A stretch of DNA of 62,654 nt from assembly GCA_937877075.1 (NCBI GenBank), contig CALEGD010000005.1:1-62654 (forward strand), in the 5' to 3' direction. Below, piece after piece: positions 28,740 to 62,654 of this stretch. The notes beneath the pieces were generated by a model, which was not told the origin of the DNA, did no database searches, and worked only from the letters and a program-made list of their open reading frames with translations. This stretch comes from an uncultured Acholeplasmatales bacterium (GTDB lineage: Bacteria > Bacillota_I > Bacilli_A > ML615J-28 > CAG-698). Every line of letters begins with the position of its first letter. Position 1 is the first letter of the stretch. The translations under genes were made by a program, and so were the position numbers.

Positions 28740-28768
28740 TTGACTTAATAAAATAATAATGATATAAT
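28740..28768 (+). promoter_or_regulatory. promoter TTGACT-17-TATAAT of glycan operon A
   Basis: Hexamers at 28740-28745 and 28763-28768. Confidence 0.6.
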
Positions 28769-28770
28769 AC

Positions 28771-28784
28771 CATTAACGTTAATG
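28771..28784. promoter_or_regulatory. perfect 14-bp palindromic operator CATTAACGTTAATG (LacI-family type)
   Basis: Self-complementary with a central CG. It starts 3 nt after the -10 box. Near-copies lie at 38817-38830 and 54434-54447. Confidence 0.6.
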
Positions 28785-28981
28785 TTAGTTGGTTATATTA
28801 TAGTTTTTTATTTTTACGTTAAACAACTTTATCGATAAGGTGAAACGAATTCATATTTACGAAAGCGCTTTTATAATCTTTTTTCGTTTTATTTTATAAT
28901 TTTGAGTAATTAAATACTAGCAATATATTAGAAAGGAGTTAGAAAAATTAAATAGTTAATTTATTTAATTTATGATGAGAA

Positions 28982-31360
28982 ATGAATTATTCAATTAAAA
29001 AATTATTTGTTTTTCTTTTTTTAAGTTTTTTTGCAATAATACTCGTTGCGTGTAAAAATTCTGATGTTTTTTTTACAGTAACATTTGATGCAAATGGTGG
29101 AACATTAACCGGAGAAGCCACGGTGGAAGTAAAAAAAGATGCAAAATTAATTGCACCTGATGCTCCCACTAGAGATTTTTATGTATTTACTAAATGGTAC
29201 AAGGATCAAAACTGCACTTTAGAGTATGGTTTTGATAGTGTTGTTACTAAAGATTTTATTCTTTATGCAGGATGGAAAGACGAAGAATTAGAGATGGAAT
29301 CAGTTTCAACAATTGATGAATTTTTGAATATGGAGTTGGATGGAACCTATATTTTAAAGAACGATCTAGATTTAAAAGGTGAAAAGATTACACCAATAGG
29401 TTCATACAAACAAGCTTTCACAGGCGTTTTTGATGGTAATGGTTATTCAATCAAAAACTTTAGTTTTGAAGATGCGGAATATATGGCATTGTTTGCTGTT
29501 TTAGAAGGCACTTTAAAGAACTTAAATGTGGAAGGGATTACGGCTGCATCAAACGGAAGAACTGGAGCAACTTATCTTGGCGGTTTGGTTGCATATAATC
29601 GTGGCGGAACTATTTCTTCATGTTCGGCATCTGGAGATCTCAGTGCCGATTCGAAAAGTCTTTTATTAACAGTATATTTAGGTGGAATAGCCGGAAGAAA
29701 TGACGCGGGTATTATTGAGAACTGTTATGTTGATGTAAATTTAACAGGAAGTAATGATGCCAATGTTTATATCGGTGGAATAGCCGGATATAACGGTGGT
29801 GGAAAAAATTACGAAGGTAAAATTAGAAACTGCGTAGTCACTGGTGAAAAGTTTGAAGCTCTGGCAAGATTAAATACCGGATCCGCTTATGTTGGTGGTA
29901 TAACCGGTTATAATTTTGGTTATGTTGGCGGTAGTTATTCGATGGTTGAGTTACTAAAATCTGTAACTTGGGAATATTACAATTATGTTGCAGGTATTGT
30001 TGCTGATAATAATGGCGGTTTTATCGAAAACTGCTTCACAACTTCAAATATTACAGTTGAAACATATCACGGTAATACTTTCTTGGGGTCGGTAGTTGCA
30101 AGATTATTTATCGGTGGCGAAGTTTCTAATTCTTATGCTTTTGATGGTCAAGTTATAAATACTATCGTTACCGATGAGGCATATTGGGGACTCGGAAGAC
30201 ATTATCGTTATATTTCTCCGCTTGTTACCAAAGAAGAACTTGCGGATAGTTCTTGGTATCAAGACGTATTAAAATTAACCGAAACTTTTAGTTTTGTAGA
30301 CGGAAAGTATCCAAGTATTTTAGGTGAAGAAACTACAGTGGAATTAACTTGTCCGGAAGGAACTTATGGAAATCCGATAAAGATTAGATCTGTAGAAGAT
30401 TTCCAGAATATCGATGTTACTAAATCATATATTCTGGAAAATGACATAGATTTAACTGATGTTGATTTTGTACCGATTGGTAGTTATGAACATCCATTCT
30501 ATGGCCTTTTTGATGGAAACGGTTTTAAAATTTCCGGCCTTATGATATCTGAAGACAAGAATCTAGGTATGAATTCTTTATTCGGACATTTTAATGGAAT
30601 GATTAGAAACTTATCAGTTGAAACAGAAATTAACTATCAGTCTGAAACAGCATACCCTCAATATGTTTCTGGTCTAGCTGCTTTTGGAATTCAAGGAATC
30701 ATTGAAAAGTCCCATGCTGAGGTTCTGATTGATGTTGAAAATCCAGGAATTATTGGTGCCGGATTATTAGCATATGGCGATGATGTAAAAGTAATTGAAT
30801 CATCAACAACCGGAACAATCAATTTAAAATCCTTAAATGAATCCGCATATGCCGGTGGGTTGGTTGGTGTTACTGAAGCTGGATTAATTGAAAGCTCATA
30901 TTCTAAAGCGAATGTCACTATTTACGGAAATAATACCGTCAATGTCGGAGGTTTAATTGGAAAGAATACCGGTAATATTATTGATTGTTATTCAACGGGT
31001 AAAATAACCGGTAATGTTTCTGCTGATACAACAAGTTCACACATCTATATTGGTGGCTTGATAGCTAATAACGAAACCGGACTTGTGAAAAACAGTTATT
31101 CTAAATCAAAGATGATTGTAAGTTCAAAATACGCCGTTATCGTGAGAGGTGGTTTTGCCGGTTATAATAATGGAACCGTAGAAAATTGTTATTGGTATCA
31201 AGTTTATGAAGAGATGAATAGTTTTGGGCACTCAATTATACCAACCGATGTAACGCCTATAACTAATATATCAGATGCTGAGAATCTTTCAGAAAGATTA
31301 GGTAACGAAACCTGGAAAGATGTAAATGATAGCTTTCCGGTATTTCGTTGGCAAAACTAA
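28982..31360 (+). CDS. surface lipoprotein with a Listeria-Bacteroides repeat followed by two GLUG-motif repeat regions
   Basis: Lipobox LVAC (Cys24). TVTFDANGGT...F.KWYKD...Y.F...V..DF.LYAGW repeat. Recurrent GG(L/I)(V/A)G.N.G.I..C(Y/F) GLUG units. The two halves each begin (I/V)..F.N.......YIL.ND(L/I)DL......PIGSY...F.G.FDGNG(Y/F).I. Confidence 0.7.
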   Translation: MNYSIKKLFVFLFLSFFAIILVACKNSDVFFTVTFDANGGTLTGEATVEVKKDAKLIAPDAPTRDFYVFTKWYKDQNCTLEYGFDSVVTKDFILYAGWKDEELEMESVSTIDEFLNMELDGTYILKNDLDLKGEKITPIGSYKQAFTGVFDGNGYSIKNFSFEDAEYMALFAVLEGTLKNLNVEGITAASNGRTGATYLGGLVAYNRGGTISSCSASGDLSADSKSLLLTVYLGGIAGRNDAGIIENCYVDVNLTGSNDANVYIGGIAGYNGGGKNYEGKIRNCVVTGEKFEALARLNTGSAYVGGITGYNFGYVGGSYSMVELLKSVTWEYYNYVAGIVADNNGGFIENCFTTSNITVETYHGNTFLGSVVARLFIGGEVSNSYAFDGQVINTIVTDEAYWGLGRHYRYISPLVTKEELADSSWYQDVLKLTETFSFVDGKYPSILGEETTVELTCPEGTYGNPIKIRSVEDFQNIDVTKSYILENDIDLTDVDFVPIGSYEHPFYGLFDGNGFKISGLMISEDKNLGMNSLFGHFNGMIRNLSVETEINYQSETAYPQYVSGLAAFGIQGIIEKSHAEVLIDVENPGIIGAGLLAYGDDVKVIESSTTGTINLKSLNESAYAGGLVGVTEAGLIESSYSKANVTIYGNNTVNVGGLIGKNTGNIIDCYSTGKITGNVSADTTSSHIYIGGLIANNETGLVKNSYSKSKMIVSSKYAVIVRGGFAGYNNGTVENCYWYQVYEEMNSFGHSIIPTDVTPITNISDAENLSERLGNETWKDVNDSFPVFRWQN

Positions 31361-31371
31361 AGGAGGATAGA

Positions 31372-34260
31372 ATGAACAGATTTAAAAACTTATCCCTTTT
31401 TACATTATCGTTAATATTAGGATTGTTTATGCTAACAAATTTAAAGAATTTTGATGTTCAAGCAGAAGATTCCTCTCAATTTTCAGTAGTTGCAACATCT
31501 GAAAAAGAAGGTTATGAGGCCGCAAAGGCAATCGATAAAGATCTTAATACATTTTGGGAAGCAGCAGACTTAGACCCACAATCACTAACGATTGATTTAC
31601 AAAAAGTTTTCCAAGTTACTACAGTTTCTCAAACCTTTAATGTTGAAGATGTTTGGTCTTTTAAAATAGATGCATCTTTGGACGGTGAAGCTTGGGTTCA
31701 ATTAGCTGATTATTCTTTTGGTCAAAGAGGACTAGTTTTTGCCGATGACGTAAATGGATTTTATCAATATATCAAGTTAACCGTGTTTTCTTCGAGAAAA
31801 GGTTATCTTGCAACAAGTAGGGATTTTAGTGTTACGACCATGGAAATGAATGAAGGAACAAATATTGCTTTAGGAATGAAGGGCAATTCGGGAAGTTGGT
31901 CTCCTGGTTGGGAACATGAAAGAGCTTTTGACGGTGATTTAGGTACTGCATATTGTGCGAATGATGGTAGTTTCCCTCAATGGTGTGGTGTTGAATGGGA
32001 ATATATGGTTTATGTTGATACCTTAGAAATATATGTAAAAGATTATGGGACAACAAATTTTGAGATCGAAATTCTTTTAGAGAATGGATCCTGGGTTAAA
32101 TTAGTTGAAGCCGCTGATTTTGTTGGTACGCATTTTAAATTTGATGTAAAACAAGAAGTAAAAGCAGTTATCTACCGAGTATTTTATGGTCCTGGTTGGG
32201 CTAATCTGGTTGAAATGATTGTCAATGGGTTTAGAGATTTTAATCTGGTGAAACCTGGAGAAGATATTCAAGAATATGATTTTGAATATTTATCATATTT
32301 GGATAGATTAGCAATAGTTAATACTGTCGGTGATTTTAAAATTGAAGCTTCTCGTGACGGAGAAAATTGGGAAGAAATAGCTAATGAAGACACTGAATTA
32401 ACTGATGGTTATCTTCTTGTAGAAGATTATTATCAATATCTTCGTTATAATGAAAATGGCGAATATAAAAAAGATAATTTGAAGATTTTCGGAACTCAAC
32501 TAATTCGTGATTTAGCACAAGGTTTGCAAGGAAAAGTTTCTGATTATTCAGACGAAAACTTCAATGCTGAAAAAGCGACCACTAATCCTGAACATGTAGA
32601 TGGAAGGAACCAATTTTGGTGTGCCTCAACATATGGCGGCGAGCATTGGTTAATGATTGATTTAGGTAATCCATCCGTTATAAAAAAGGTTAGACAAAAA
32701 TTCCAAGATACGGGAAGTTATAAATTTAAAATTCTTGCCTCGCTCGATGGTGAAACTTGGATTACTCTTAGGGATGAATATGATGGAGCTGTGGAGGGAC
32801 AAGTTTTTGATGCATATCCGGAAGAAGATAATAATTTATTTAGATATATTGCTTTATATGAGAAGGATGTATCTTGGGCAAACAGTAATCAATTTCAAGT
32901 TTTTGGGGTTGGTTCACCGGTTCAAGAAGAATGGTGGCAATCAGAATCAGGGGTTATTCGTTATTATTTAAAACAACAAGCTGTAACTATCAATCAAATT
33001 ACTGATTTATTACCTTATTTTCAGGAATCAGGATATAAAGTTCTTGAACTTCATCAACCATATGAAGGTCTTGCTGATATTTGGGGAGGACTTGGCTCGA
33101 CTAATAATTACCAAATTGACCCTATTGTTGGTACACATGATGATTTAAAAATCTTAATAGATGAAGCTCATAAAGCAGGCATTTATGTATTCATGTTTGG
33201 AAATGTTGGTTATGCTCGTTCTACGGCTGCATTTTTCGAAAAAGCTTGTCGTGATTATGCTTTAGGAATTGAATCCGCAGAACGTGATTGGTTCTTATTC
33301 AGTAAAACTTGTCCTGACCCCACAAAATGGTTCTGGAGTGATACTGCTAATGCCTTTTACTACGGATTTTGGGGTGAAAACGGGCAAATACCTACATATA
33401 ATTTTGATAATGAAGCTTGGCGTCAAGAAACAACTAAATATGTAACATATTGGGCTAATTTCGGCTTTGACGGAATAGCGCTTGATGCCCCTCCGGTATA
33501 TTACTGGGGCAGTGCTGATCCGGTCAGTACATCTTATAGATATATTACTAATCCATTGGCTGCTATGAATGTTATGACGATTCCGGAAGGCACATCAGAT
33601 GCTAACTTTATTTATCAATATAATTATGATGTGGTTCAAAACTATAATTTAAGTTCTTGGGGCGCTGGCGGTTGGACTTTAGCCTTAGAAAAGGCAATGG
33701 CTCATAATGCTGAAGCTATTGATGAATATGTGCGTTTAAGAGACAATGCTGTTCAATTCTATGGTGTTTCCTTTGCGACTTTAACTTTTGAACAAATGTA
33801 TGAAAATGTAACATCTGAAGAAAAGTTAATGGAAGCTGCCCTACTTGTAACAACAGGACATATGGCATTCTTACATTCTGGTTCATCAGCAATGATAGGT
33901 CAAGATATTTTGCTTGATTGGCCGAAGGAAGTTCAAGAAAAAGTCGCTTCTTTGTATGCATTACAAAATAGTTTTGCTGGATTAAATGCTAACGGAGCGA
34001 GAAATAAATTATATACAAATAATGATGATTTATTTTATGCTTCCTTTAAAACGAATATGTCCGGAAGTTTAAAGAATATCAGTTTATTTAATTTTTCAGA
34101 TAAAACTGAAACTGTTACCGTTGATGTTTCAAATATTGGTACGACCAGTTTAGAAGTTGTAAACCTCTTAACAGGTGAAGTTGAAGAGGTAATGACCGAA
34201 AACGGGAAATTGATTGTAGAAATGGAATCACTTTCTTATAAAATATATAGGGTTAAATAG
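31372..34260 (+). CDS. secreted protein: four F5/8-type-C (discoidin/CBM32-like) domains plus a divergent alpha-amylase-superfamily (GH13-like) TIM barrel
   Basis: ATG at 31372 follows AAAGGAGGA. Signal peptide ends FDVQA. Discoidin-type patterns (A.KAID.D..T.W.A, F.I..S.DG..W). Catalytic part has Y.IDP..GTHDDLK.LIDEAHKAGIYV, NFGFDGIALDAPP and MTIPEG. Confidence 0.65.
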   Translation: MNRFKNLSLFTLSLILGLFMLTNLKNFDVQAEDSSQFSVVATSEKEGYEAAKAIDKDLNTFWEAADLDPQSLTIDLQKVFQVTTVSQTFNVEDVWSFKIDASLDGEAWVQLADYSFGQRGLVFADDVNGFYQYIKLTVFSSRKGYLATSRDFSVTTMEMNEGTNIALGMKGNSGSWSPGWEHERAFDGDLGTAYCANDGSFPQWCGVEWEYMVYVDTLEIYVKDYGTTNFEIEILLENGSWVKLVEAADFVGTHFKFDVKQEVKAVIYRVFYGPGWANLVEMIVNGFRDFNLVKPGEDIQEYDFEYLSYLDRLAIVNTVGDFKIEASRDGENWEEIANEDTELTDGYLLVEDYYQYLRYNENGEYKKDNLKIFGTQLIRDLAQGLQGKVSDYSDENFNAEKATTNPEHVDGRNQFWCASTYGGEHWLMIDLGNPSVIKKVRQKFQDTGSYKFKILASLDGETWITLRDEYDGAVEGQVFDAYPEEDNNLFRYIALYEKDVSWANSNQFQVFGVGSPVQEEWWQSESGVIRYYLKQQAVTINQITDLLPYFQESGYKVLELHQPYEGLADIWGGLGSTNNYQIDPIVGTHDDLKILIDEAHKAGIYVFMFGNVGYARSTAAFFEKACRDYALGIESAERDWFLFSKTCPDPTKWFWSDTANAFYYGFWGENGQIPTYNFDNEAWRQETTKYVTYWANFGFDGIALDAPPVYYWGSADPVSTSYRYITNPLAAMNVMTIPEGTSDANFIYQYNYDVVQNYNLSSWGAGGWTLALEKAMAHNAEAIDEYVRLRDNAVQFYGVSFATLTFEQMYENVTSEEKLMEAALLVTTGHMAFLHSGSSAMIGQDILLDWPKEVQEKVASLYALQNSFAGLNANGARNKLYTNNDDLFYASFKTNMSGSLKNISLFNFSDKTETVTVDVSNIGTTSLEVVNLLTGEVEEVMTENGKLIVEMESLSYKIYRVK

Positions 34261-34269
34261 GTGAAGTAT

Positions 34270-37200
34270 ATGAGAAAATTTTTATTAGCATTCTTGATAA
34301 TATTATTTGGTATGTTTTTTACAGCTTGTAAACCAGAAAATACTAACCCTAATGGTAATGGTAATAACAATACTGATCCAGATCCTGATGAAGATCCGAA
34401 TCCTATTGTAACTCCAATAGTGGATCCTAAAGAAGATTCGAGAACTATGGTGTTAAAATCAACTAATGATGTGAATACGGCAATTTCTATCTGGAGAGCC
34501 TCTTACACTGAAGTAGGAATAAAATTCGTTATTTCAGTTTTGGATGACAATATCTTTACCGATAACATTTATGATATTGGCTTTGATGATAATGTCGAGT
34601 TTTTGATTAACAAGAAAACAAATTCTAATGGTTGGGACACTAATTACACATATCACTTTTTAATTAATCCTTCTGGTAAGGTATATTTTCAAAAAGCTAA
34701 TTCTTCAAATAGTTTGGGTGGAAGTTTTGATGTCACTCTAGGCGTTTCATATGGCGAAAATATGGAATACTATGTGAGATATACCACCTTGGAAGAAGAT
34801 GGCTTTGATGGATACGAAGCTACTGTCGAAATTGGCTATGAAATATTAAACGTAACCGAAGAAGAAGGCTTTGGCAATTTAGCAGTTTGTCCAGCAATGA
34901 GAAATTCCTTTGATTTGAAGAAGACCACATGGTCTCCGTATAATTCACATGGATGTGATTGGAGTGTTGCTTCTAGTTTTATCTTAGTAAATCAAGATGG
35001 AACCTTTGATTATAGTCCTTTAAATAACGTTGAAGTACTTTATGTTGGTGATACATCTATGGCTAGAAATAACTGGCTTACTTTTGCCAGTGATACAATG
35101 AATCAAGATGCTATCAATGTTTCAACAAGCACCTTAACTATTGAGGGTCTATTAGAAAACATCACTAATATTACAAGTTTCAATCCGAAAAAAATAATGC
35201 TTTATGTTGGTTCCAATGAAATTAATTCCGGTACTGATGGAAATACTGTCGGAACTAAAATAATTGAATTACTAGAAACTCTTCATGAATTACTTCCTGA
35301 AACTAGAATCTATGAGACGCTTATCGCACCTAATGAAAGATTCTTTAATAATTTTGATGAAGCTCAAATCGCTAATAGTTTAATCAACGAATATGCGGAG
35401 AAGAATGATTTCTTAGAAACAATTGATTTAAACAATTATCTATTAGATAATGATAATGAATGTATTATCGGATATTTCATAGATGGAGTTCATTTTAACC
35501 AAATTGCTTATAATTTATGGACCTATTTAATGCGGGATAAATTAGGTGAAAGTCAAGTTGATTTAGGTGATATTCTAGGGGATAGTGAGTACTTCCGTTC
35601 ATCAAAAGCTTATCAATTAATAACTGATGCCAATGGAGATGAATGCATTGAAAGTATTGGCGATTATGATCAATATACCTACTTTGCGAATAAAGCAACT
35701 AATGCCTTTACCTCATCTATCAGTTTGACGGCTATTGAAGTATTTAATAATGATCAATATCCTAAATTTGGGTTGATTATTTCTAATCATGACACCACAT
35801 TGTTCTTCTATATTGACGGAAGCAATCAATTATCAACCCAAAGAGTAGGTTATGTTTATTTTACAAATAACCGCAATTGGGATTGGGCTAACAGTAAAGA
35901 AGTATATTCTGATATTAATTACAGTAATGGTGAATATACAAAACTAACGGCTATTAGAAATGGAGCTAAGATATCATTACTGGTGAATAATGAAGAAGCA
36001 TTTGTAATTAACGATAGTCATTTTGGTCTGGATAATACAAATGCTGGAGTATTAAGTTTCAATTCTCACTTACTATTAAAAGATCCATTCTATGAAGAAG
36101 ATGTTTTAGATGATGACGGCAATGATAAGGGTTGGTTAATTTCCGCGACTTCCGAAAAAACAGCTAATCCTGTTTCTAATGCGATTGATGGTAATCTAAA
36201 TACAGCTTGGATTGCTGATGACCTTAATACTCAAGTAGTAACTTTAGATATGTTAGAAGTTTATCCTGTTACTAAGGTTACCCAACAATTTGCAGTCAGT
36301 GATATATGGCGTTTTAAGATTGAAATGTCTTTAGACGGAACTAATTGGGCAGTTATTTCTGATAAAATGACAGGCGTAGATACTGAAAAATATGAGGTTC
36401 TTGTTACTGGTTATTATAGATACCTTAGATTAACAGTTGAAGGAAGTGAAGACCTTAATCCTGCATCAAGTGTCGAACTGACGGTTGAAAGAGGGGAGCT
36501 GCATAAAGGCACCAATATCGCCAGAGGTCTTAAAGGTAGTGCACAAGATTGGTCGGGAGGATATGAAACTGAATTGGCATTGGATGGAGATTTCAATACC
36601 GCCTGGACTGCTTATGATGGTAACTTTCCGAAATACTGGGCTGTTGAATGGAATTATACGGTTTATATCAATACGCTTGAAATATTCCTAATCAATGAAG
36701 GAGTCTGGAACTTTGAAATCGAAGTCAGATTAGAAGACGGTTCATGGGTTAAACCTTTAGAAGCAAGAGATTATGAAGGAAATCACTTTGTATTACCTTT
36801 AAATATCGAATGTAATGCCGTCTTGTATCGAGTTTTTAGTGGACCGGGATGGGCACATATTGTTGAAATGAATGTTTTTGGATTTAAAGATCAAACATAT
36901 TATGCTGATCAACAAAATAAGGATAATTATCGTGTTTATGATTTAGAGTATCCAACCTATGTTGATAAGATAGCTTTAAAAGATGATGAAATCAGCAACT
37001 TCCTTATTGAGGGTTCATTAGATGGAGTTACTTGGGAAGCAATTAATCCTTCTAAATTAGCTTATATTGAAGTTGGAAAATGTTATCGCTATATTCGTTA
37101 TAACGAAAACGGGCTAGCAAGTGATAATTTAAAAATCTTTGGTACTTCTTTAGTAAATGATTTAGTTATGTATCGTTTAGGCGTAGCATCTGATTCATCG

Positions 37201-54188: not shown

Positions 54189-54209
54189 AATTGTTAAATA
54201 TATGTTTCT

Positions 54210-54240: not shown

Positions 54241-54292
54241 AAAACTATTTTTAAATAATAAATCAATATATGGTGTCTAAAATAAAATATTA

Positions 54293-54343
54293 GGTTGACA
54301 TTAACCTTAATGTAATGTAAAATATATGTATACAAACGTTTAC
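54293..54343 (+). promoter_or_regulatory. copy 2 of the duplicated promoter-operator cassette (TTGACA-17-TAAAAT plus TACAAACGTTTAC)
   Basis: 48/51 identity with 37693-37743. TTGACA at 54295-54300, TAAAAT at 54318-54323. Confidence 0.65.
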
Positions 54344-54433
54344 CATTGTGAATAATTTTTTAGTATTATACTTAACGATATTGATTAATCCCTGTAGAAA
54401 TTGATACTGTATAGGATTATTATTGATTTACTA

Positions 54434-54447
54434 CATTATCGTTAATG
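54434..54447. promoter_or_regulatory. operator-like site CATTATCGTTAATG (13/14 match to the 28771 palindrome)
   Basis: Lies in the ~165-nt leader of the ABC operon, followed by the inverted repeat ATAACCgatGGTTAT (54451-54465). Confidence 0.5.
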
Positions 54448-54492: not shown

Positions 54493-55929
54493 ATGTATAA
54501 AAAAGTATTAATTTTCATCTTCGTTTTATTGGGTGCATTTTTCTTGACTGCATGTGGTGGTGAAGAAGATCCTTTAAAAGAAGGTAAGATTGAAATCGAT
54601 TTTTGGGGTTGGGGAGACAAATTAGAAGTAGAAGTGTTTAGAGGCTTAGTTGATCTCTTCAATCAAACAAATGAAGAGGTATATGTAAATTATGTACAAA
54701 AACCTGCTGCTTCTTATGAAAGCTCTATGGAACAAATCCTTTCCGGTACCAGAGCTCCGGATATATTTTATGTCGGAGACGGAAGCCTGAAAAAATGGGT
54801 GGAATTAGACTTTTTATATGATATTTCTGAATTAGTCGATAATAGTGAAGTTATTGACTTAGAAGATATTTGGCCGGAAGCAATTAAAAGATATCGTTAT
54901 GATAAAACAACTAAATTATCGGTTGAAGATGCACCGTTATATGCATTACCAAAAGACATTGGACCGACAGTAGTTTATTATAATATAGATGCTTTAAATG
55001 AGGTTGGCGTTACAGTGATCAGCAAAGATCTTGATGATCCGACAATTACTGATGATGAGAAGTTCGGATATAATATTGAAAATAAAATTTTCAATAATCG
55101 GATTCCGATGACTTGGGAAGAAACCGAAGCTCTTTCCTATTTACTTACAAAATCTCACAATCCTTCATCGCCTACAACCTATGGTTATTATACCGAATGG
55201 TGGTTTAACTATGTTTGGAGTATCGGCGGAGATGTTGCAGAACTAAACGATGAAGGTTATTATGAGTTTGCTTTGGGAAAGACTGAAAAGAACACTTCTG
55301 ATACCGGCGTTGAGCTTCCTTCAAACCGTGAAGCATTCAAACATTTTGTAGACTTATCAACAGTTCACGGAACTTCGCCAAAACCAAATACAATTAATAC
55401 AACCGGTAAAACTAATTATTTTACTTCCGGTAAAGTTGCGATGATGGTTGATGGAAGATGGTCGGTTGTTACAGTTAGAAGGGATGCGAAATTTGATTGG
55501 GACGTTGCACCACTTCCGGTGCACAAAGACGGAATTCCGGCTGGACATAGCGGATCAATGGGATTTGGAATTTGGAAAAAATCAAAGAAAGTTGAAGCTG
55601 CTTTCAGCTTCATGGAGTTTATGGCAGGACCGGAAGGTCAATCAACTCAAGCTGAGACAGGCTTTAATATTCCAAACCAAATCAGTGTTGCGAATACCGA
55701 CGTATTCCTACAATCCGATAAAAAACCTGCGAATGCAAGAGCTTTTATTGAAGCCGCTAGTTACCAAAAAGCAGGAGACTGGGCGATGTTACCTGATAAA
55801 GCTTGGATTAATATTTGGGCACCTACATTAAATGGTTCAGTATTGAATGGTGATATGAACTTGGACGAATTCTTCTCAAGATTTACAGAGAAAACAGATG
55901 AATTATTAAGAAATTATATAAATAAGTAA
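54493..55929 (+). CDS. ABC transporter sugar-binding lipoprotein (CUT1 / family-1 SBP)
   Basis: RBS AGGAGG. Lipobox LTACGG. I.FWGWGD start, DIFYVGDG, LPKD.GP.V.YYN and GKVAM..DGRW motifs of MalE/MsmE-like binding proteins. Confidence 0.85.
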   Translation: MYKKVLIFIFVLLGAFFLTACGGEEDPLKEGKIEIDFWGWGDKLEVEVFRGLVDLFNQTNEEVYVNYVQKPAASYESSMEQILSGTRAPDIFYVGDGSLKKWVELDFLYDISELVDNSEVIDLEDIWPEAIKRYRYDKTTKLSVEDAPLYALPKDIGPTVVYYNIDALNEVGVTVISKDLDDPTITDDEKFGYNIENKIFNNRIPMTWEETEALSYLLTKSHNPSSPTTYGYYTEWWFNYVWSIGGDVAELNDEGYYEFALGKTEKNTSDTGVELPSNREAFKHFVDLSTVHGTSPKPNTINTTGKTNYFTSGKVAMMVDGRWSVVTVRRDAKFDWDVAPLPVHKDGIPAGHSGSMGFGIWKKSKKVEAAFSFMEFMAGPEGQSTQAETGFNIPNQISVANTDVFLQSDKKPANARAFIEAASYQKAGDWAMLPDKAWINIWAPTLNGSVLNGDMNLDEFFSRFTEKTDELLRNYINK

Positions 55930-55942
55930 CGAGGTAATTTAG

Positions 55943-56851
55943 ATGGAAGAACTCATCAAAAAACATAAAAATAAAGTAAGGTATTCAAAATGGGGATTTG
56001 TGCTTGCATTTATTCCGCTCTTAGGATTTTTTATTTTTGGTCTAATCCCCTTGATTCTTAGTTTTGTTGTTAGTTTATATAAACCTTTGGGATATAGTTT
56101 TTCGAATATGAACTGGATGGGTTTAAAAAACTATACACATGTTTTAACTGATGAGGTTTTTTGGAAATCTGTCGGTAATACATTTTATGCGATGTTATCA
56201 ATACCGATTAATTTATCATTATCTGTTATCATTGCGACCATTCTTACAAACAAAAGAATGAAAGGAAAAGGAATTTTTAGAACAATATACTTTCTTCCTT
56301 ATGTTTGTTCGGTTGTAGCGGTTTCAATAATGTGGCGTTGGGCATTTGACGGAGAATTTGGAATCATTAATACTCTGCTTTCATATATCGGCATTAAAGG
56401 ACCGGACTGGCTGGGAAATTCAAAGACCTTAATGCCAGCAATGATAATGATGTCGGTTTGGGGCGGTATCGGATTTAATACTATTATCTTCAGCGCCGCT
56501 ATGACAAATATTGACCCGTCTCTTTATGAAGCTGCGGAAATAGATGGAGCCGGATCTATTGCAAGGTTTTACCATATTACTTTACCGTCTATTTCTCCGG
56601 TAACCTTCTATTTGCTTTCAATAAGCATTATTGGCGGCCTGCAAGACTTCGCGAGATTCCAAATCATGGCCCCGGGTGGTGGTCCGGATAATGCCGGACT
56701 AACCATGGTCTATTACTTATACAATGCCGGATTCCAAGAAATTATTACTTATGGTATGGGAATAGCGACAGCAGTCGCCTGGATACTCACTATTATAGTT
56801 GTCTGTATTACCGGAGCTAATTTTAAATTATCAAGTAAATGGGTGAAATAA
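55943..56851 (+). CDS. ABC sugar transporter permease (MalF/UgpA-like)
   Basis: Six TM segments. EAA loop YEAAEIDGAGSIARFYHITLP. Confidence 0.85.
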   Translation: MEELIKKHKNKVRYSKWGFVLAFIPLLGFFIFGLIPLILSFVVSLYKPLGYSFSNMNWMGLKNYTHVLTDEVFWKSVGNTFYAMLSIPINLSLSVIIATILTNKRMKGKGIFRTIYFLPYVCSVVAVSIMWRWAFDGEFGIINTLLSYIGIKGPDWLGNSKTLMPAMIMMSVWGGIGFNTIIFSAAMTNIDPSLYEAAEIDGAGSIARFYHITLPSISPVTFYLLSISIIGGLQDFARFQIMAPGGGPDNAGLTMVYYLYNAGFQEIITYGMGIATAVAWILTIIVVCITGANFKLSSKWVK

Positions 56852-56852
56852 A

Positions 56853-57752
56853 ATGGCAGATATACAAAAAAGAATTAAAACAAAGAAATCAAAAAGAGGA
56901 CAAGAAAATATTCGATTAGTTTTTAATTATATATTTTTAATTTTGATGGCTCTCTTTATTCTCTTGCCGTTTTATGTAATTTTAGTAACTTCCTTTAAAA
57001 CCAATCCCGAAGCAACCTCACTACCATTTACTTGGCTACCTAAAGAAGGATGGAACTTTAACAGTTATATAGAAGTACTGTTTGAGGATGTGTCGGGCGG
57101 AACCAAAGGTGTGTCATCAATTTTGGTTGGATTTAAGAATACAATGATTATAACCGTACCCGCTACCTTGATCGGACTTCTAACAAGCGGATTTTCCGCC
57201 TATGCTTTCGCAAAACTTCGTTTTAAAGGTAAAAAAATAGGGTTTTCTCTTTTATTGCTGACAATGATGTTTCCCGGAATTGTTATGTTGGTCCCTTCAT
57301 ATATGATTTATGACAAACTAGGATTGGTCGGAGATTCATTTTTCCCCTTGATGGTTCCCGGAATGTTCGGAGCGGCTGCTGCCGTCTTCTTCTTAAGACA
57401 ATATTTCCAAGGAATACCGAATGAGTTGTTGGAAGCGGCAACAATCGATGGAATGGGAGAACTTGGAATCTTCTTTAAGATAATGGTTCCTTTATCAAAA
57501 CCGGCATTTATAACTCAGGCAATCCTTGGATTTATTGGTGGTTATAATGATTATTTTGGACCTTTGTTATATTTACAAGATCCGAGAAAATATACTTTGC
57601 AGATTGCTTTAAGATTTTTTGAAGGAACTAATGTAGGTAACTGGCCGACCGTTATGGCCGGAGCTGTTGTATCGCTAATTCCAACAATTTTAATATTTGT
57701 TTTTGCTCAAAGATATTTTGTTGAAGGAATAACTAGGAGCGGGATTAAATAA
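56853..57752 (+). CDS. ABC sugar transporter permease (MalG/UgpE-like)
   Basis: Six TM segments. EAA loop LEAATIDGMGELGIFFKIMVPL. Confidence 0.85.
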   Translation: MADIQKRIKTKKSKRGQENIRLVFNYIFLILMALFILLPFYVILVTSFKTNPEATSLPFTWLPKEGWNFNSYIEVLFEDVSGGTKGVSSILVGFKNTMIITVPATLIGLLTSGFSAYAFAKLRFKGKKIGFSLLLLTMMFPGIVMLVPSYMIYDKLGLVGDSFFPLMVPGMFGAAAAVFFLRQYFQGIPNELLEAATIDGMGELGIFFKIMVPLSKPAFITQAILGFIGGYNDYFGPLLYLQDPRKYTLQIALRFFEGTNVGNWPTVMAGAVVSLIPTILIFVFAQRYFVEGITRSGIK

Positions 57753-57765: not shown

Positions 57766-59325
57766 ATGAAAAAAACATTAATTTTATTTATAGCTATCGG
57801 CTTGCCATTTTTATTGGCAGGTTGTACAGAAAAACTTGCTTACTATGATACATTTAGTAAGGATGGTTTTAATCAAAACTTGTTCTATAGGAATGATCTT
57901 AAAACATTAGGAGCTGACCCCTCTGTAATCGAAATAACAGAAGGAGAAGAAAAAGGTTATTTTTATATGTACAATACGACGGATATCATCGGTGCAACCG
58001 GGGTTTACTCCTGGAGAACTAAGAACTTTAATGATTGGGAAGTCATGGGTCCTGCCTTTATTCCCGAAAGAGATTCTTGGGCAATCAGAGATATCTGGGC
58101 ACCCGAAGTTATCTATAAAGACGGAAAGTATTATATGTACTATACCGGTAAAAATGAAAAAACAAAAAGACGCGGAATGAGTGTCGCAGTCGCCGATTCA
58201 CCAAACGGACCTTTTAAAGAATTTAGTGGTCAAGGTGCAAACGGAGTAGTCTATGATCATAGAACTCAAGTATTTGACTTTGGTTTTCCGGCAATCGATG
58301 CTTCTCCATTTATTGATGGTGATGATTTCTATTTATATTTTTCAAAAGACCAAGTAGACGGAGTTTCTTCGATCTATGGAGTTAAGATGCTAGATATGGT
58401 AACCCCGGATATGGATACCTTAAAACTACTAACTTATCCAACTTTCCCAACAATTGCTTCGATGGAAAAATTGGGTTTAGGTTCAATCGAATGGGAACAT
58501 AAGACTAACGGTGCAAACATGTGGAATGAGGGAGCCTTTATGTATAAACATAACGGTAAATATTACCTTACTTATTCCGCGAATCCTTTCTGGGCCCGTG
58601 AATACGCTGTCGGTTATGCGGTTGCTGATAATCCATTAGGAGACTTTGTAAAGCCGGAGAAAAACCGAATCCTCGGTGTCGACCTTACTTGGGATCATAT
58701 GTCAGGAACAGGTCATCATAGTTTCTTTAGTGCCGGTAATGAGTTATTTATTGCTTATCACGCCCACACTGACAGAGTATACGGAGATAGCAGTAGAGCC
58801 ATAGCCGTCGACCGCGTAATCTTTACAGAAGATAAACCTCATGTTAACGGACCTACTTATTCACTCCAACCTCTTCCAGAAGTAAGTTCGGGTTACAGAA
58901 ATGTTATGAGCGAAGGAACATTAACTTCTAATACCGGTGCAGAAACTTCTAAATTAACCGACGGAATTATCGCAATGCATCTTGATGAAACTGAATATGA
59001 ATATCATGTTGACAACGGAAAAGTTTTATTAACAATAAAATTTGATGAAGCAATAACTACTAGAGCGATTTTGGTTTATAATTCAGTAGATATTGAAACT
59101 TCATTTATGAAAATTAAGAAAATCACCATCAACAACAAATTCAGTGCCAAAAACATCGGCTATAATCCTTTATATATTAATGATTATGATCCTGAATATT
59201 TAGAAATGAGACCGGGCGGTGCTTTCATTATTGAATATGATGAGCTTGATACAAAAGAAATAACAATTGAAATTGATAACGGAAAGGCATTCTCAATTTC
59301 TGAAATTGTCGTTCTGGGGAGGTAG
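57766..59325 (+). CDS. GH43-family glycoside hydrolase lipoprotein with C-terminal beta-sandwich domain
   Basis: Lipobox LAGC. GADPSVI, WAPEVIYKDGKYYMYYTG, IDASPFIDGDD.YLYF and NEGAFMYKHNGKYYLTYS five-bladed-propeller motifs with the Asp/Asp/Glu triad positions. Confidence 0.8.
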   Translation: MKKTLILFIAIGLPFLLAGCTEKLAYYDTFSKDGFNQNLFYRNDLKTLGADPSVIEITEGEEKGYFYMYNTTDIIGATGVYSWRTKNFNDWEVMGPAFIPERDSWAIRDIWAPEVIYKDGKYYMYYTGKNEKTKRRGMSVAVADSPNGPFKEFSGQGANGVVYDHRTQVFDFGFPAIDASPFIDGDDFYLYFSKDQVDGVSSIYGVKMLDMVTPDMDTLKLLTYPTFPTIASMEKLGLGSIEWEHKTNGANMWNEGAFMYKHNGKYYLTYSANPFWAREYAVGYAVADNPLGDFVKPEKNRILGVDLTWDHMSGTGHHSFFSAGNELFIAYHAHTDRVYGDSSRAIAVDRVIFTEDKPHVNGPTYSLQPLPEVSSGYRNVMSEGTLTSNTGAETSKLTDGIIAMHLDETEYEYHVDNGKVLLTIKFDEAITTRAILVYNSVDIETSFMKIKKITINNKFSAKNIGYNPLYINDYDPEYLEMRPGGAFIIEYDELDTKEITIEIDNGKAFSISEIVVLGR

Positions 59326-59333
59326 TGAAGATA

Positions 59334-61742
59334 ATGAAGCAGAAACTATCAATATTATTTTTACTCGTACTTACACTTTTGCTTGCATCCTGCGGTAAAC
59401 TTGCGGAATATAGTTTTGAGAACCCTAATTTTCCCCAAGGTTTTGATGAAAACAAAGCTCCTTTGGAAGATACGATAGTTTTTGACGGACAATTAAATGA
59501 AGGCTTTTATACAGGAAAAAACTATTTAGAGTTTTCAAAAACTGGCGATGCAAATCATAAAATGACCCTAACAACCGTCTTTTTCGAAAGTGGCTTATTA
59601 GTTGGGGTACAAATTAAAGACCCCCAAATTTATTATAATAGTCTAAATGAAATCTATAAAAACGATTCATTTGAACTATATATTAATCCAACAAGTCAAA
59701 GGACTAAAGTCAATAAAGACTTTCTCCAAATAAGAGTAAGTGCTACAAATGACAGAGAAATGTGGATCGGTGTTCCGACGGGGAACGAATATGGATGGTC
59801 GCGATTTTATGTTCCCTTTTCCAGTGTTGTTAACATCAACGGCACAATAATTGATACCTTTGAAAAAGATGTCGAAGCAAACCAAAATTCCCTAGGTTAT
59901 ACATCAGAGGTATTTATCCCCTGGACATCGCTTAACTTAAATTCAAAACCGGAGACCATTGACATTTTTCCAGCATTTATTGAATCGTATGGATTTGGCT
60001 CAAATGACTTTAATTGGAATTCATATCAAGATTTATCACATATGGAACCGACCAATTATCTAACATTTGATGCGAATGGTCTTTCTCTTTCTGACGACGG
60101 AACTATCTTTGGCGATAGTAACTTCGGAAAACTTGCAACTAACGGATTTGATTTATCTGATGAAGAAAATCGTGTTATTCAATATGGTGGTTATGATCAA
60201 TATGTTTATTTCAAAAATATCACCGGTAATAGATATGGATTCAGTGTTGATATCAGCAATCTCGTTATCTTAAACAATGACCCGTATCCCAAAGTTGGGG
60301 TTATTGTAGGTGAAAACAAGGATCGAATTGTAAACTTCTTCTTTGATCCATTCCCACCATTTAATAATTATTACGGAGTATTTGTACCCCGGGACAGAAA
60401 CGATGATAACTGGCAATGGGGACCGGGAAGTCCGCTTCCGAATGGATTTAGTTATCAGGATGTTAATAAAATGACAGTAATTAAAGACACTGAAATATCC
60501 TATATATTTGTAAATGATGTTTTGGTTGATAAACGCGCTCATGGACTGAAAGGTTCTACCCAAGCTGGTTTGTTTACAATGAATATGAGTGCTATTTACG
60601 CCAATTATCAAGTCTTAACGGAAGAAGAAATTAACGGTTATATTCAAACTACTGATTTTGGAAATACAATGTTTGAAGATGTAAGTAATGGATTCAGTCT
60701 CTTAGATGACGGTTCACTCTTACAAAACGGTATCGGTGAACAAACTGCCTATTTCAAAGATGTTAACTCTACAAAATACAAAGTCAGCGCAAAAGTCAAA
60801 CTTACTGGGGCATTAAATAATGACCTATTCCCGAAAGTTGGAATTATTGCCGGTTCAACTGCTGAAGGGGATGAATCCTTCTTAATCGACCCGCGTCCGA
60901 ATTTTGATGTTAAAGACTTCTTGGGAGTCAGCAGATCTAAAGGATCTGATTGGAGTTGGGGTGAACAAAAAATAGTTTGGCTGGACGGAATTGACTATGA
61001 GAATGAAATCGAATTAACTGTTGTCAGAGACGGAATTAAAATATATTATTTTGTTGACGGAACATTAATCTATGAGAAAGATTCGATTATTACAAGTAGC
61101 GGCAGACCCGGTTTAATTACCATGAATTATGAAGCAGTTTTTAGTAATTTCAATATCACTACCGATGAAACTGAAATTGATGAATTTATAGGAAATTATG
61201 TTTTCTCAAATGTCTTTGGTTGGACTGGGCATGGTAACTTTAATATCTTTGAAAACAGTATTTTCTTAAACGATACATTATATGATGTAGCATTTGATTC
61301 TAATCAAATTGAAAATGACAATATCCTTCTAGAAGATTCATTCTTTGTAGAGTTTGATCTAAGTCAAGTAAGATATGCGCCAATGGAATGGGTCTGGCCT
61401 AAACTTAATTTATTGCTTATTAAAGAAGATGGAGTTTTGTCTGATTTCGCCGTCGGAGTAAATCCAACAAAACAAAACAGATTTGAAACAAATATCGACG
61501 GTTGGATGAATTGGGATAATTTTGATAATATCGATTGGACATTGACTAACACTATCAGAATTGAAAGATTGATTACAGCTGAAGGAACGGCTGAATTTAG
61601 ATTGTTTTTGAATGATACACCTGCAACAATTGCCGGAGAAAATTATATCGAAACTAATTATGTAGATAATTATCGTCTTGGCTTAAGTTTTGATTATGCA
61701 AGTGGATTAATCTCAAACTTAAGAGTTGGCGTAATTGAATAG
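59334..61742 (+). CDS. non-catalytic surface lipoprotein: CBM9-like domain plus three NDxYPKxG-type beta-jelly-roll modules
   Basis: Lipobox LASC. NDSFELYINP (CBM9-like). Modules have ..YVYFKNITGNRYGFSVDISNLVILNNDPYPKVGVIV.. and ..AYFKDVNSTKYKVSAKVKLTGALNNDLFPKVGIIA.., plus a divergent third copy. ATG at 59334 is preferred over GTG 59325. Confidence 0.6.
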   Translation: MKQKLSILFLLVLTLLLASCGKLAEYSFENPNFPQGFDENKAPLEDTIVFDGQLNEGFYTGKNYLEFSKTGDANHKMTLTTVFFESGLLVGVQIKDPQIYYNSLNEIYKNDSFELYINPTSQRTKVNKDFLQIRVSATNDREMWIGVPTGNEYGWSRFYVPFSSVVNINGTIIDTFEKDVEANQNSLGYTSEVFIPWTSLNLNSKPETIDIFPAFIESYGFGSNDFNWNSYQDLSHMEPTNYLTFDANGLSLSDDGTIFGDSNFGKLATNGFDLSDEENRVIQYGGYDQYVYFKNITGNRYGFSVDISNLVILNNDPYPKVGVIVGENKDRIVNFFFDPFPPFNNYYGVFVPRDRNDDNWQWGPGSPLPNGFSYQDVNKMTVIKDTEISYIFVNDVLVDKRAHGLKGSTQAGLFTMNMSAIYANYQVLTEEEINGYIQTTDFGNTMFEDVSNGFSLLDDGSLLQNGIGEQTAYFKDVNSTKYKVSAKVKLTGALNNDLFPKVGIIAGSTAEGDESFLIDPRPNFDVKDFLGVSRSKGSDWSWGEQKIVWLDGIDYENEIELTVVRDGIKIYYFVDGTLIYEKDSIITSSGRPGLITMNYEAVFSNFNITTDETEIDEFIGNYVFSNVFGWTGHGNFNIFENSIFLNDTLYDVAFDSNQIENDNILLEDSFFVEFDLSQVRYAPMEWVWPKLNLLLIKEDGVLSDFAVGVNPTKQNRFETNIDGWMNWDNFDNIDWTLTNTIRIERLITAEGTAEFRLFLNDTPATIAGENYIETNYVDNYRLGLSFDYASGLISNLRVGVIE

Positions 61743-61766
61743 CATTTTAATATTAATAAGGAGTAT

Positions 61767-61798
61767 AAGCCATTTAAGAAGACTTTCTTAAATGGCTT
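61767..61798 (+). terminator. perfect 14-bp hairpin after operon C (no U-tract)
   Basis: AAGCCATTTAAGAA-gact-TTCTTAAATGGCTT. Confidence 0.45.
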
Positions 61799-61802
61799 GT
61801 AA

Positions 61803-62654
61803 ATGATAATGAAGAGAAGAGAATACCCAAGACCAGCCTTTGTCAGAAAAAATTGGATAAACTTAAATGGTACATGGGACTTTTCCTTTGATGATAATAA
61901 TATCGGACATAAGGAGAAGTGGTATATAAATCACAATTTTAATTTAAAAATTGAAGTCCCTTTTGCTTTCCAATCAAAATTAAGTAATATTAATGTCCAG
62001 GAATTTCATGATCGGGTTTGGTATAGAAGAAAATTTAAAATAAATAGTAAAGCTTTCCGTAAAAGAATAATCTTACATATTGGTGCTTGTGATTATGAAA
62101 GCGAAATTTATATTAACCATGAACTTGTGAGAAAACATATCGGCGGTCATTCTAGCTTTAAAGTAGATATCACTGATTATTTAAATTATGAAGAAGAAGA
62201 AATTGTTATATTTGCCTATGATAAATCAACAGATGAATTTATTCCGCGTGGGAAACAATATTGGAAAGAAAAGAATGAAAGCATTTACTATACAAGAACA
62301 ACTGGTTTATGGCAAACAGTATGGTTAGAAGAAGTTGATGAAATTCATATTGATAGTTTCAAAATGACTAGCGATATTGATAGTGGATTATTATATGTAG
62401 ATTTAAATATTTCTACTGAAGCAGATGTAAGGTTACAAGTTCAGGTATTTGATAAAGAAGTATTAATAATCTATAATAATTATTCACTAGATAGTATCAA
62501 TAGTAAATTTGCATTGGATATCTTCCAAGGTAAAATAATGAATACCGTTGCTCATCATCGCGGAAAGACTTGGAGTCCGGAAAATCCTCATTTATATGAT
62601 ATAGAGTTTACTCTTTTTCAGAATGATGAAATAGTAGATGAGGTAAAATCCTAT
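61803..62654 (+). CDS. GH2-family glycosidase (beta-galactosidase/beta-glucuronidase-like), N-terminal 284 codons; continues past the window
   Basis: REYPRP.F.R..W.NLNG.WDF.FD start, then V.IN...V..H.GG...F..DIT and DYE sugar-binding-domain motifs typical of GH2. No signal peptide. The frame is open to the window end. Confidence 0.75.
   Translation, partial: MIMKRREYPRPAFVRKNWINLNGTWDFSFDDNNIGHKEKWYINHNFNLKIEVPFAFQSKLSNINVQEFHDRVWYRRKFKINSKAFRKRIILHIGACDYESEIYINHELVRKHIGGHSSFKVDITDYLNYEEEEIVIFAYDKSTDEFIPRGKQYWKEKNESIYYTRTTGLWQTVWLEEVDEIHIDSFKMTSDIDSGLLYVDLNISTEADVRLQVQVFDKEVLIIYNNYSLDSINSKFALDIFQGKIMNTVAHHRGKTWSPENPHLYDIEFTLFQNDEIVDEVKSY

Follow-up and report, generated by a model that had tools for sequence, protein, structure and literature searches.

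By definition, a Gram-positive polysaccharide utilization locus (gpPUL) combines an enzyme with a transporter and a regulator (Sheridan et al. 2016, PMC5320581). All three are found in a locus of 14 genes that runs, entirely on the + strand, from position 28982 to the end of a 62,654-nucleotide stretch of DNA from an uncultured Acholeplasmatales bacterium (contig CALEGD010000005.1; this whole stretch is called the window). The enzymes are glycoside hydrolases (GHs) of families GH115, GH31 and GH43 and an SGNH esterase, all with strong matches in Pfam or the Protein Data Bank (PDB); the transporter is an importer at 54493-57752 and the regulator a LacI-family protein at 37794-38786. Walled Firmicutes attach such proteins by sortase, by S-layer homology (SLH) domains or by cell-wall binding, and SusE/F-type surface glycan-binding proteins are built of immunoglobulin-like (Ig-like) domains and domains resembling carbohydrate-binding modules (CBMs), as are the binding proteins described below. 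Mollicutes are usually seen as reduced organisms that live on simple nutrients. The locus analyzed here is nevertheless probably a gpPUL of a wall-less member of the Acholeplasmataceae, composed of three cassettes and predicted from its control sequences to form a single LacI regulon.

The gene set from 28982 to the window end, as listed in an initial annotation made from the sequence alone, was reproduced by the list of open reading frames (ORFs), and a Pfam scan of the locus proteins confirmed the families assigned to its domains. That the genes are co-directional is true and uninformative, because all ORFs in the window that reach 100 aa, 34 in number, lie on the + strand; GC skew is positive throughout. 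TGA serves as a stop codon in the window, which fits Acholeplasma rather than Mycoplasma. Homologues and synteny place the source organism in the Acholeplasma family (Acholeplasmataceae), so that the 'monoderm or wall-less cell' of the initial annotation can be narrowed to a wall-less Mollicute. The same annotation had singled out the locus as a candidate for an undescribed system. It falls under the gpPUL definition, and each of its cassettes exists separately in other genomes. A limited search of the open-access literature returned no description of a PUL for Acholeplasma or Acholeplasmataceae.

A predicted operator shared by three operons

The locus divides into operons A, B and C, with the regulator gene lacI between A and B. 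The following control elements were located:

28740 to 28768, + strand: operon A promoter, TTGACT-17-TATAAT, extended TG
28771 to 28784, no strand: perfectly palindromic operator CATTAACGTTAATG, adjoining the -10 element of the operon A promoter on its 3' side
37592 to 37634, + strand: terminator hairpin with a following U-run at the end of operon A, fold of -14.7 kcal/mol (z -4.4)
37688 to 37743, + strand: lacI promoter block, TTGACA-17-TAAAAT, with an operator in the spacer (37699-37712) and a cre-like box (37731-37743)
37794 to 38786, + strand: LacI-family repressor, Pfam LacI and Peripla_BP
38817 to 38830 and 38881 to 38894, no strand: two operators upstream of operon B, found in the CATTAACGTTAATG search
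54204 to 54245, + strand: terminator hairpin after operon B, -18.5 kcal/mol, z -6.7
54288 to 54447, + strand: operon C control region, with promoter block, operator (54299-54312), cre-like box (54331-54343) and second operator (54434-54447)

The operons are linked by a predicted operator, the 14-bp palindrome CATTAACGTTAATG, which is centered on CG and common to four intergenic control regions. At no more than two mismatches it occurs seven times in the window, against an expectation of 0.55, and none of 100 shuffles reached this count. Six of the seven copies fall into control regions, namely those of operons A, B and C and of lacI. The promoter from which the initial annotation started the locus, at 28740, is preceded by a terminator-like hairpin (28123-28143) and is indeed the joint-best sigma-70 match in the region (11/12 positions). 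A 56-nt promoter-operator block is 93% identical between 37688-37743 and 54288-54343, and both copies end in TACAAACGTTTAC, a box resembling the catabolite-responsive element (cre). The operator at 54299 thus lies within the spacer of the operon C promoter, with a second copy 135 nt downstream. The seventh operator-like site (31403-31416, two mismatches) lies in the 5' end of the GH13-like gene of operon A, just past the end of the preceding gene; it could be due to chance or be an internal control point.

The repressor carries both domains of its family, the LacI helix-turn-helix (PF00356) and an effector domain (PF13377/PF00532), and is 74-76% identical to the LacI encoded at the same site in the closest relative (L004, described below). 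The operator is conserved along with it. L004 has a copy in the spacer of its lacI promoter and another before GH43, and a 77% relative (L009) has one before the gene for the solute-binding protein (SBP). In Acholeplasma granularum, an operator precedes lacI and a perfect copy precedes the SBP gene, followed by a canonical cre, TGTAAAACGCTTACA. These observations are good evidence, though not proof, for the prediction that one LacI controls all three operons. A response of the three operons to unrelated signals, which the initial annotation had named as an outcome that would tell against its hypothesis, appears unlikely because one LacI-type operator is shared by all the control regions. No hairpin follows lacI, and lacI may therefore be co-transcribed with operon B.

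Three cassettes that also occur alone

The closest relative, the Acholeplasmataceae metagenome-assembled genome (MAG) GCA_012841865.1 (L004), is syntenic with the window for metN, metI, metQ, Mem_trans, LacI, GH43, an 802-aa protein and GH2, at 70-87% identity. At the same site after metNIQ and Mem_trans it carries only LacI-GH43-802aa-GH2. Relative to L004 there are two insertions in the window, one of about 9.5 kb before lacI (operon A) and one of about 19 kb between lacI and GH43 (operon B and the importer). A. granularum (L006) has the order LacI-SBP-permease-permease-GH43-989aa-GH43-GH2, followed by a giant protein of 1491 aa with Big_2 and PKD domains that is 39% identical to the product of 39002, the first gene of operon B. 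In the 77% relative, the order from B to C is that of the window. The same relative appears to encode a fusion of GH43 to the 802-aa protein (1324-aa product). It differs from contig L010 by 1 nt in a G-run (L009 12320-12353 versus L010 11260-11295), and the fusion, probably an assembly or sequencing artefact, was left out of account.

The core of cassette B recurs in three places, each time as GH115 with a giant Big_2/CBM/PKD lipoprotein and a further lipoprotein of about 325 aa. It is followed by GH2 in an Acholeplasma MAG (L003) and by LacI in a Bacilli-type contig (L007). In a MAG labelled Christensenella (L002) it is accompanied by a SASA/SGNH esterase, an AraC regulator and a GH31 that is 61% identical to that of the window and is its closest homologue outside the family. 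The GLUG/discoidin-GH13-like pair of operon A recurs, with annotated ORFs that overlap, in the unrelated contigs L011 and L012, in both cases beside LacI genes. Cassette C is thus found alone in L004 and L006, cassette B alone in L002, L003 and L007, and the A pair alone in L011 and L012. By this comparison, the supercluster is a merger of modules each known separately elsewhere, and some of the cassettes were probably acquired horizontally. Two further genes were noted in these contigs. A compact Cas9 gene (1096 aa) lies at 22052-25342 of L003, a few kilobases downstream of the GH115 cassette, and a gene for UDP-galactopyranose mutase (GLF) lies at 2607-3713 of L011, a contig of low GC content (27.6%), near the GLUG/GH13-like cassette.

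The existence of each cassette by itself, with its own LacI or AraC regulator, raises the question of whether three unrelated cassettes have come together here by chance as a mosaic, each for its own glycan (an alpha-glucan such as dextran, glucuronoxylan and arabinan), under a generalist regulon or loosely coupled. The short LacI-GH43-802aa-GH2 arrangement at this chromosomal site in the closest relative would fit such a mosaic, as would the identity of GH31 to a Christensenellales protein, which suggests horizontal acquisition, and the different substrate classes of the nearest solved relatives. We nevertheless consider it somewhat unlikely: the operator is shared by all control regions, a rare lectin-like domain occurs in all three operons, a discoidin array and a sialidase-like CBM are common to several of the enzymes, a single transporter serves all three operons, and the B-to-C arrangement is kept in the 77% relative. 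The reading as one gpPUL of three cassettes is the more likely one.

Operon C and GH2 point to furanosides

Operon C and the adjoining GH2 gene comprise:

54493 to 57752, + strand: CUT1-type ABC importer, Pfam SBP_bac_1 and two BPD_transp_1, no ATPase gene
54493 to 55929, + strand: lipoprotein binding protein (SBP) of this importer, Pfam SBP_bac_1
55943 to 56851 and 56853 to 57752, + strand: its two permeases, Pfam BPD_transp_1
57766 to 59325, + strand: GH43 lipoprotein, Pfam
59325 to 61742, + strand: 805-aa non-catalytic lipoprotein with a CBM9-like domain, two concanavalin A-like (ConA-like) domains and a fourth beta-sandwich
61809 to 62654, + strand: N-terminal 282 aa of GH2, cut by the window end, Pfam, no signal peptide

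Three independent core proteins, SBP, GH43 and GH2, point to furanoside oligosaccharides, most simply arabinofuranosides, because each is closest in sequence to furanoside-related proteins. The best solved relative of the SBP is the arabino-oligosaccharide-binding protein AbnE (6RJY, E=2.2e-36; the next match has 8e-15). For GH43 it is 4QQS (E=3.5e-44), the Halothermothrix orenii alpha-L-arabinofuranosidase HoAraf43, which cleaves p-nitrophenyl alpha-L-arabinofuranoside and not xylosides (PMC4356313). The model of the endo-arabinanase AbnB matches GH43 only partially, at 1e-8. For GH2, the full-length orthologue in L004 was used, which is 82% identical to the window fragment and has the catalytic NE motif (PLNESW). 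Its best match is 7XYR (1.4e-114), followed by the beta-D-galactofuranosidase 9J6M/N (about 1e-66), while classical beta-glucuronidases reach about 1e-27. 7XYR is an uncharacterized GH2_19 enzyme, and GH2_18/19 form a furanosidase group that includes beta-D-galactofuranosidases (PMC12243196). By this ranking, GH2 is assigned to the GH2_19/18 furanosidase group (group III) rather than to a generic group of beta-galactosidases and glucuronidases. A specific reading as beta-glucuronidase was also rejected, as the best NCBIfam model scores far below its cut-off, the beta-galactosidase GalA model scores equally, and the PDB ranking favors the furanosidase group.

The membership of GH2 in a group with beta-D-galactofuranosidases, and the match to 9J6M/N in particular, would also fit a core (GH43, lectin-array lipoprotein, importer and GH2) directed at beta-D-galactofuranose in microbial or fungal glycans, with the released galactose entering the Leloir pathway. 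The window holds galK and galT (4623-7234) and galE (23447-24466) and is devoid of arabinose catabolic genes. The gal genes, however, lie outside the operator-marked regulon, the only strong solved relative of the SBP binds arabino-oligosaccharides, and that of GH43 is an arabinofuranosidase. A galactofuranose target is therefore quite unlikely, and arabinofuranosides remain the simplest reading of the core.

Pfam identified no ABC ATPase among the locus proteins, as the initial annotation had stated; the only ATPase in the window is of the methionine-transporter type (24810-25556). This absence is not distinctive, because CUT1 importers usually lack an ATPase gene of their own and share an ATPase of the MsmK/MsmX type encoded elsewhere. 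In the 805-aa lipoprotein, Pfam recognizes the CBM9-like domain only. AlphaFold2 modelled the protein as four beta-sandwich domains (pLDDT 83.7), which Foldseek aligns with LamG/neurexin, galectin and CBM66 folds and with the beta-sandwich appendages of GH43 and GH32 enzymes. Only 14 homologues were found in 5.8 billion clusters. Those that can be named come from an Acholeplasmataceae MAG (72% identity), A. granularum (42%) and a Bacilli MAG (29%), and the homologues always sit between GH43 and GH2. A 17-bp hairpin (61764-61801, + strand, -21.2 kcal/mol, z -6.3, no U-run) separates the 805-aa gene from GH2 and is possibly an attenuator or an mRNA stabilizer.

Operon B encodes a GH115 cassette and a GH31 enzyme

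Four genes make up operon B:

39002 to 43840, + strand: 1612-aa non-catalytic lipoprotein, Big_2, PKD/InlK_D3 and sialidase-like CBM (Pfam)
43852 to 48252, + strand: 1466-aa GH115 alpha-glucuronidase lipoprotein (Pfam), C-terminal extension with sialidase-like CBM
48262 to 49242, + strand: 326-aa lipoprotein, Ig-like N-terminal domain and ConA-like domain
49287 to 54188, + strand: 1633-aa GH31 (Pfam), four CBM35/CBM6, FIVAR, C-terminal transmembrane anchor

Chunked BLAST of the 1612-aa protein against itself revealed repeats from end to end, namely four sialidase-like CBM domains of about 150 aa and about 12 Ig-like PKD/InlK_D3 domains. GH115 has both the catalytic domain (PF15979, 4.5e-110) and the C-terminal domain (PF17829, 1.7e-40) of its family. 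Its best solved relative is 4ZMH (E=5.8e-142 over residues 60-980), deposited as an 'uncharacterized protein', which we take to be the xylan-active alpha-glucuronidase SdeAgu115A. The 326-aa lipoprotein matches no Pfam or NCBIfam family. A word-indexed search found six close homologues, and an exhaustive profile search extended this reach. Its orthologues lie directly 3' of GH115 at 39% identity in L003, 30% in L002 and 56% in L007.

The catalytic motifs of GH31 are intact, including the WSGD acid/base motif. The best PDB matches are 6JR6 (1.7e-65) and then 5X7O, presumably a Flavobacterium GH31 dextranase and a Paenibacillus 6-alpha-glucosyltransferase, respectively. The nearest solved modules to its CBM35/CBM6 domains bind differing ligands at weak E-values and do not decide the specificity. 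The C-terminus (54089-54188) consists of a hydrophobic helix and a basic FRRKK tail, as in a sortase signal from which the LPXTG motif is missing, and may be a relic of an origin in a walled bacterium. GH31 has no lipobox, but the C-terminal transmembrane helix tethers it all the same.

Operon A encodes a conserved GLUG/GH13-like pair and an esterase

The three products of operon A are:

28982 to 31360, + strand: 792-aa lipoprotein, InlB-type B-repeat and two right-handed beta-helix (GLUG) domains
31348 to 34260 (likely start 31372), + strand: secreted GH13-like protein, Pfam and PDB sequence matches
34261 to 37587, + strand: 1108-aa lipoprotein, SGNH esterase, ConA-like domain (aa 467-617) and four discoidin domains (Pfam)

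Pfam recognizes GLUG and the Listeria-Bacteroides repeat in the 792-aa protein, which has the lipobox LVAC. The AlphaFold2 model (pLDDT 90.7, pTM 0.82) consists of the B-repeat and two right-handed beta-helices. In Foldseek searches, these helices matched BACOVA_03286 and the non-protease beta-helix found in streptococcal IgA1 proteases. A lyase function is conceivable but not supported, since polysaccharide lyase family 6 (PL6) and pectate lyases were matched only at low probabilities and TM-scores. The initial annotation had counted this protein among a set of membrane-tethered surface glycan-binding lipoproteins. That view is retained for the arrays, which stand beside tethered glycosidases and a CUT1 importer, but not for the GLUG protein, which is modelled as a double beta-helix.

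The listed start of the second gene is a TTG that overlaps the stop of the GLUG gene; the likely start is the ATG at 31372, 11 nt past that stop. The protein has four discoidin/CBM32-like (F5/8C) repeats and a divergent GH13-like barrel, and no anchor. Its alpha-amylase Pfam match is weak and partial (profile positions 20-231 of 446). When aligned with two orthologues, the candidate Asp in GIALDA is kept and the invariant region-II Arg is replaced, PEGT retains the Glu, and FLHSG retains the His without the region-IV Asp. Judged by the residues of regions I-IV, the protein does not qualify as a GH13 member and is best called GH13-like.

In the SGNH domain of the 1108-aa lipoprotein, GxND-like and DxxH blocks are present and block I reads GDTS. 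The nearest solved relatives, both weak, are a sialate O-acetylesterase and lysophospholipase L1. A CBM9 domain had been proposed for this protein, but Pfam detected none even at E values up to 1, and we dismiss it; the ConA-like domain is matched by its hidden Markov model at E=1.8e-14.

The GLUG lipoprotein may tether the GH13-like protein, because the latter is the lone unanchored export of the locus and the two are encoded as a conserved gene pair, with the GLUG gene directly in front. A bolder reading is that the two form a new two-component, tethered, endo-acting glycanase that supplies backbone cleavage. If so, the ConA-like domain of about 185 aa would be a new CBM family for one shared epitope, and the regulon as a whole would act as one machine on a complex glycan to which no PUL has yet been assigned, within the Mollicutes, a lineage not regarded as polysaccharide-degrading. 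We regard this combination as unlikely.

Shared binding modules and membrane anchoring

Proteins of all three operons share a single ConA-like domain of about 185 aa, which is found in the esterase (467-617), at the C-terminus of the 326-aa protein and twice in the center of the 805-aa protein. No Pfam family matches it even at E values up to 1, and with 235 cluster representatives among 1.84 billion at E no greater than 1e-3 it is rare. Among 48 representatives, it is fused to an SGNH esterase in eight, GH43 in seven, SASA in one and a BNR sialidase-like domain in one. In this respect, it behaves as a typical carbohydrate-binding module. The four-discoidin arrays of the GH13-like protein (aa 47-520) and the esterase (aa 627-1101) are 49% identical in protein and 72% in DNA, with DNA likeness between 32614-32709 and 37267-37362, and a sialidase-like CBM is common to the 1612-aa lipoprotein and the C-terminus of GH115. 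Such shared targeting modules argue that the cassettes act on related material.

A hidden catalytic domain was sought in the 1612-, 805- and 326-aa proteins and none was found: the first consists of repeats, the second is modelled as beta-sandwiches, and the third matches no family at E values up to 1. The large lipoproteins are thus non-catalytic, as proposed earlier, being arrays of lectin- or CBM-like and Ig-like domains. By a rough count, catalytic and binding-protein domains leave about 68% of the exported residues uncovered, which agrees with the earlier estimate by eye of well over half. Eight of the ten exported proteins carry a lipobox Cys (28982, 34261, 39002, 43852, 48262, 54493, 57766 and 59325), again as stated before. 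Together with GH31 this brings the membrane-tethered proteins to nine, and leaves the GH13-like protein, with a signal peptide only, as the sole one without an anchor. Inspection of the C-termini and Pfam confirmed that LPXTG-like ends and SLH domains are absent from the locus proteins. Dockerins are likewise absent from them, and neither cohesins nor dockerins were found in any window protein (Pfam), which speaks against a cellulosome or amylosome; dockerins were seen only in distant GLUG homologues of other organisms. Lipoprotein anchoring is the organism's default for exported proteins rather than a property of the locus, because those encoded elsewhere in the window (two 5'-nucleotidase-like proteins, MetQ and a 364-aa protein) are lipoproteins as well.

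Discoidin/CBM32, FIVAR, sialidase-like CBM and the GLUG beta-helix of IgA1-protease type are modules common in host-glycan-degrading Firmicutes. Together with the weak likeness of the SGNH domain to sialate O-acetylesterase and the presence of the core in A. granularum, which we take to be an animal isolate, they could indicate that the locus forages on, or adheres to, mucin-type animal-host glycoconjugates, the giant lipoproteins being mainly adhesins. Pfam and NCBIfam detected no sialidase, hexosaminidase, fucosidase or O-glycanase family among the locus proteins, and GH115, GH43, the AbnE-like SBP and the GH2 furanosidase are not host-glycan enzymes. The closest relative also occurs in Joint Genome Institute metagenome 3300002898, presumably an anaerobic-digester sample. 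We consider an animal-host target very unlikely.

Proposed mechanism and substrate

A gpPUL with these parts could work as follows. Without inducer, LacI would occupy the operators, and the cre-like box would add catabolite control. A glycan-derived sugar would free LacI. The tethered arrays (39002, 48262 and 59325) and the CBMs of the enzymes would keep the polymer at the membrane, where tethered enzymes would trim its decorations and release oligosaccharides. In this scheme, GH115 would take off alpha-glucuronic acid, the SGNH esterase acetyl groups, GH43 arabinofuranosides, and GH31 and the GH13-like enzyme alpha-glycosides. Oligosaccharides of the arabinofuranoside type would then be imported by the AbnE-like CUT1 transporter with an ATPase encoded elsewhere, and the cytoplasmic GH2_19-type furanosidase would complete hydrolysis.

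The substrate can be named only tentatively. A plant heteroglycan decorated with arabinofuranosyl, glucuronosyl and acetyl groups, such as pectic arabinan/arabinogalactan or glucuronoarabinoxylan, is the most likely candidate. The remark of the initial annotation that no single textbook substrate fits is upheld, as the enzymes differ in the glycans to which their nearest relatives point.

Several points weigh against a single regulon acting on one such glycan. The nearest solved relatives appear to disagree, with alpha-1,6-glucan for GH31, 4ZMH for GH115 and arabinofuranosides for the core, and the low identity to characterized enzymes makes for weak transfer of specificity. No backbone-cleaving enzyme was recognized in the window, although sequence alone cannot verify that an endo-acting enzyme is absent, nor were pentose catabolic genes found there. 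The GLUG protein has no assigned place in the mechanism. Operon B lacks a convincing separate promoter, and its operators may be roadblocks or non-functional. Finally, the pairing of operator and repressor is predicted from position, palindromy and conservation only.

Neighbouring genes

Upstream of the locus, a sugar cluster (15730-20121) without a LacI operator encodes a symporter of the GPH/MFS_2 type, an uncharacterized cytoplasmic protein of 615 aa that neither Pfam nor NCBIfam matches, and an unsaturated uronyl hydrolase of the GH88/GH105 type. The genes overlap at their ends, and the set suggests uptake of lyase-generated unsaturated oligosaccharides. A T-box leader (24537-24775, 127 bits, E=8e-28) lies directly upstream of the metN-metI-metQ operon (24810-27044). 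Two tandem 5'-nucleotidase/metallophosphatase lipoproteins (7330-10627) are followed by tRNA-Lys(CTT) (10729-10804). No family match was obtained for a 592-aa protein with an N-terminal membrane helix (2159-3937) or for the 364-aa lipoprotein (11843-12937). The stretch from 10 to 16 kb of the window has very low GC content (27-30%).

Comparison with described systems

A typical Acholeplasma genome measures 1.5-2 Mb, of which a 33-kb regulon would take up about 2%. Free-living or gut- and digester-dwelling Acholeplasmataceae can thus be real glycan foragers, with PUL logic realized without wall or outer membrane: all parts hang from a single membrane by lipid or helix anchors. Four parts lend themselves to testing: the predicted operator-repressor pair kept across the family, the rare lectin-like domain repeatedly fused to GH43 and SGNH esterases, the cassette of GH115, 326-aa protein and giant Ig-CBM lipoprotein shared with Clostridia, and the conserved pair of GLUG beta-helix and GH13-like protein. 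Experiments are feasible because A. granularum, which carries the core, is cultured.

The initial annotation had called the apparatus Sus-like. In its working logic, it does resemble the Sus-like PULs and utilisomes of Bacteroidota, with surface glycan-binding lipoproteins, tethered enzymes, import of oligosaccharides and intracellular finishing. The likeness is an analogy only: none of the 14 proteins belongs to a SusC or SusD Pfam family, there is no SusC/TonB, SusD or outer membrane, and import proceeds through an ABC transporter. SusE/F gave a single signal, a Pfam match below threshold (E=0.0038). Bacteroides ovatus is reported (Rogowski et al. 2015) to use a large xylan PUL for complex glucuronoarabinoxylan, which would share the combination of GH115, GH31, GH43 and acetyl esterase for side chains. 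The transporter type differs, and the present locus has no GH10, GH30 or GH98 xylanase and no recognized beta-xylosidase.

In the arabinan system of Geobacillus stearothermophilus (AbnEFJ, GH43/GH51), the SBP is related to that of the window, and the pairing of an extracellular GH43 with an intracellular furanosidase is alike. In contrast, the intracellular enzyme here is of the GH2_19 type rather than GH51, GH43 is not clearly of the endo-arabinanase type, no ara catabolic genes are adjacent, and the GH115, GH31, esterase and GH13-like cassettes are additional.

The closest resemblance is to the gpPULs of Roseburia, Eubacterium rectale and other Firmicutes, with which the locus shares a LacI regulator, a CUT1 importer without its own ATPase, cell-attached multimodular GHs with CBMs, and intracellular finishing enzymes. 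It differs from them in four ways. Attachment is by lipid or transmembrane helix, there being no wall; an unusually high share of the proteins are non-catalytic lipoproteins whose binding arrays stand alone; one operator is common to three merged cassettes; and several parts have so far not been characterized, namely the GLUG/GH13-like pair, the ConA-like domain and the 326-aa protein that accompanies GH115. We conclude that the surprise lies mainly in the lineage, and that the architecture is as predicted for a PUL of a wall-less relative of the Firmicutes.

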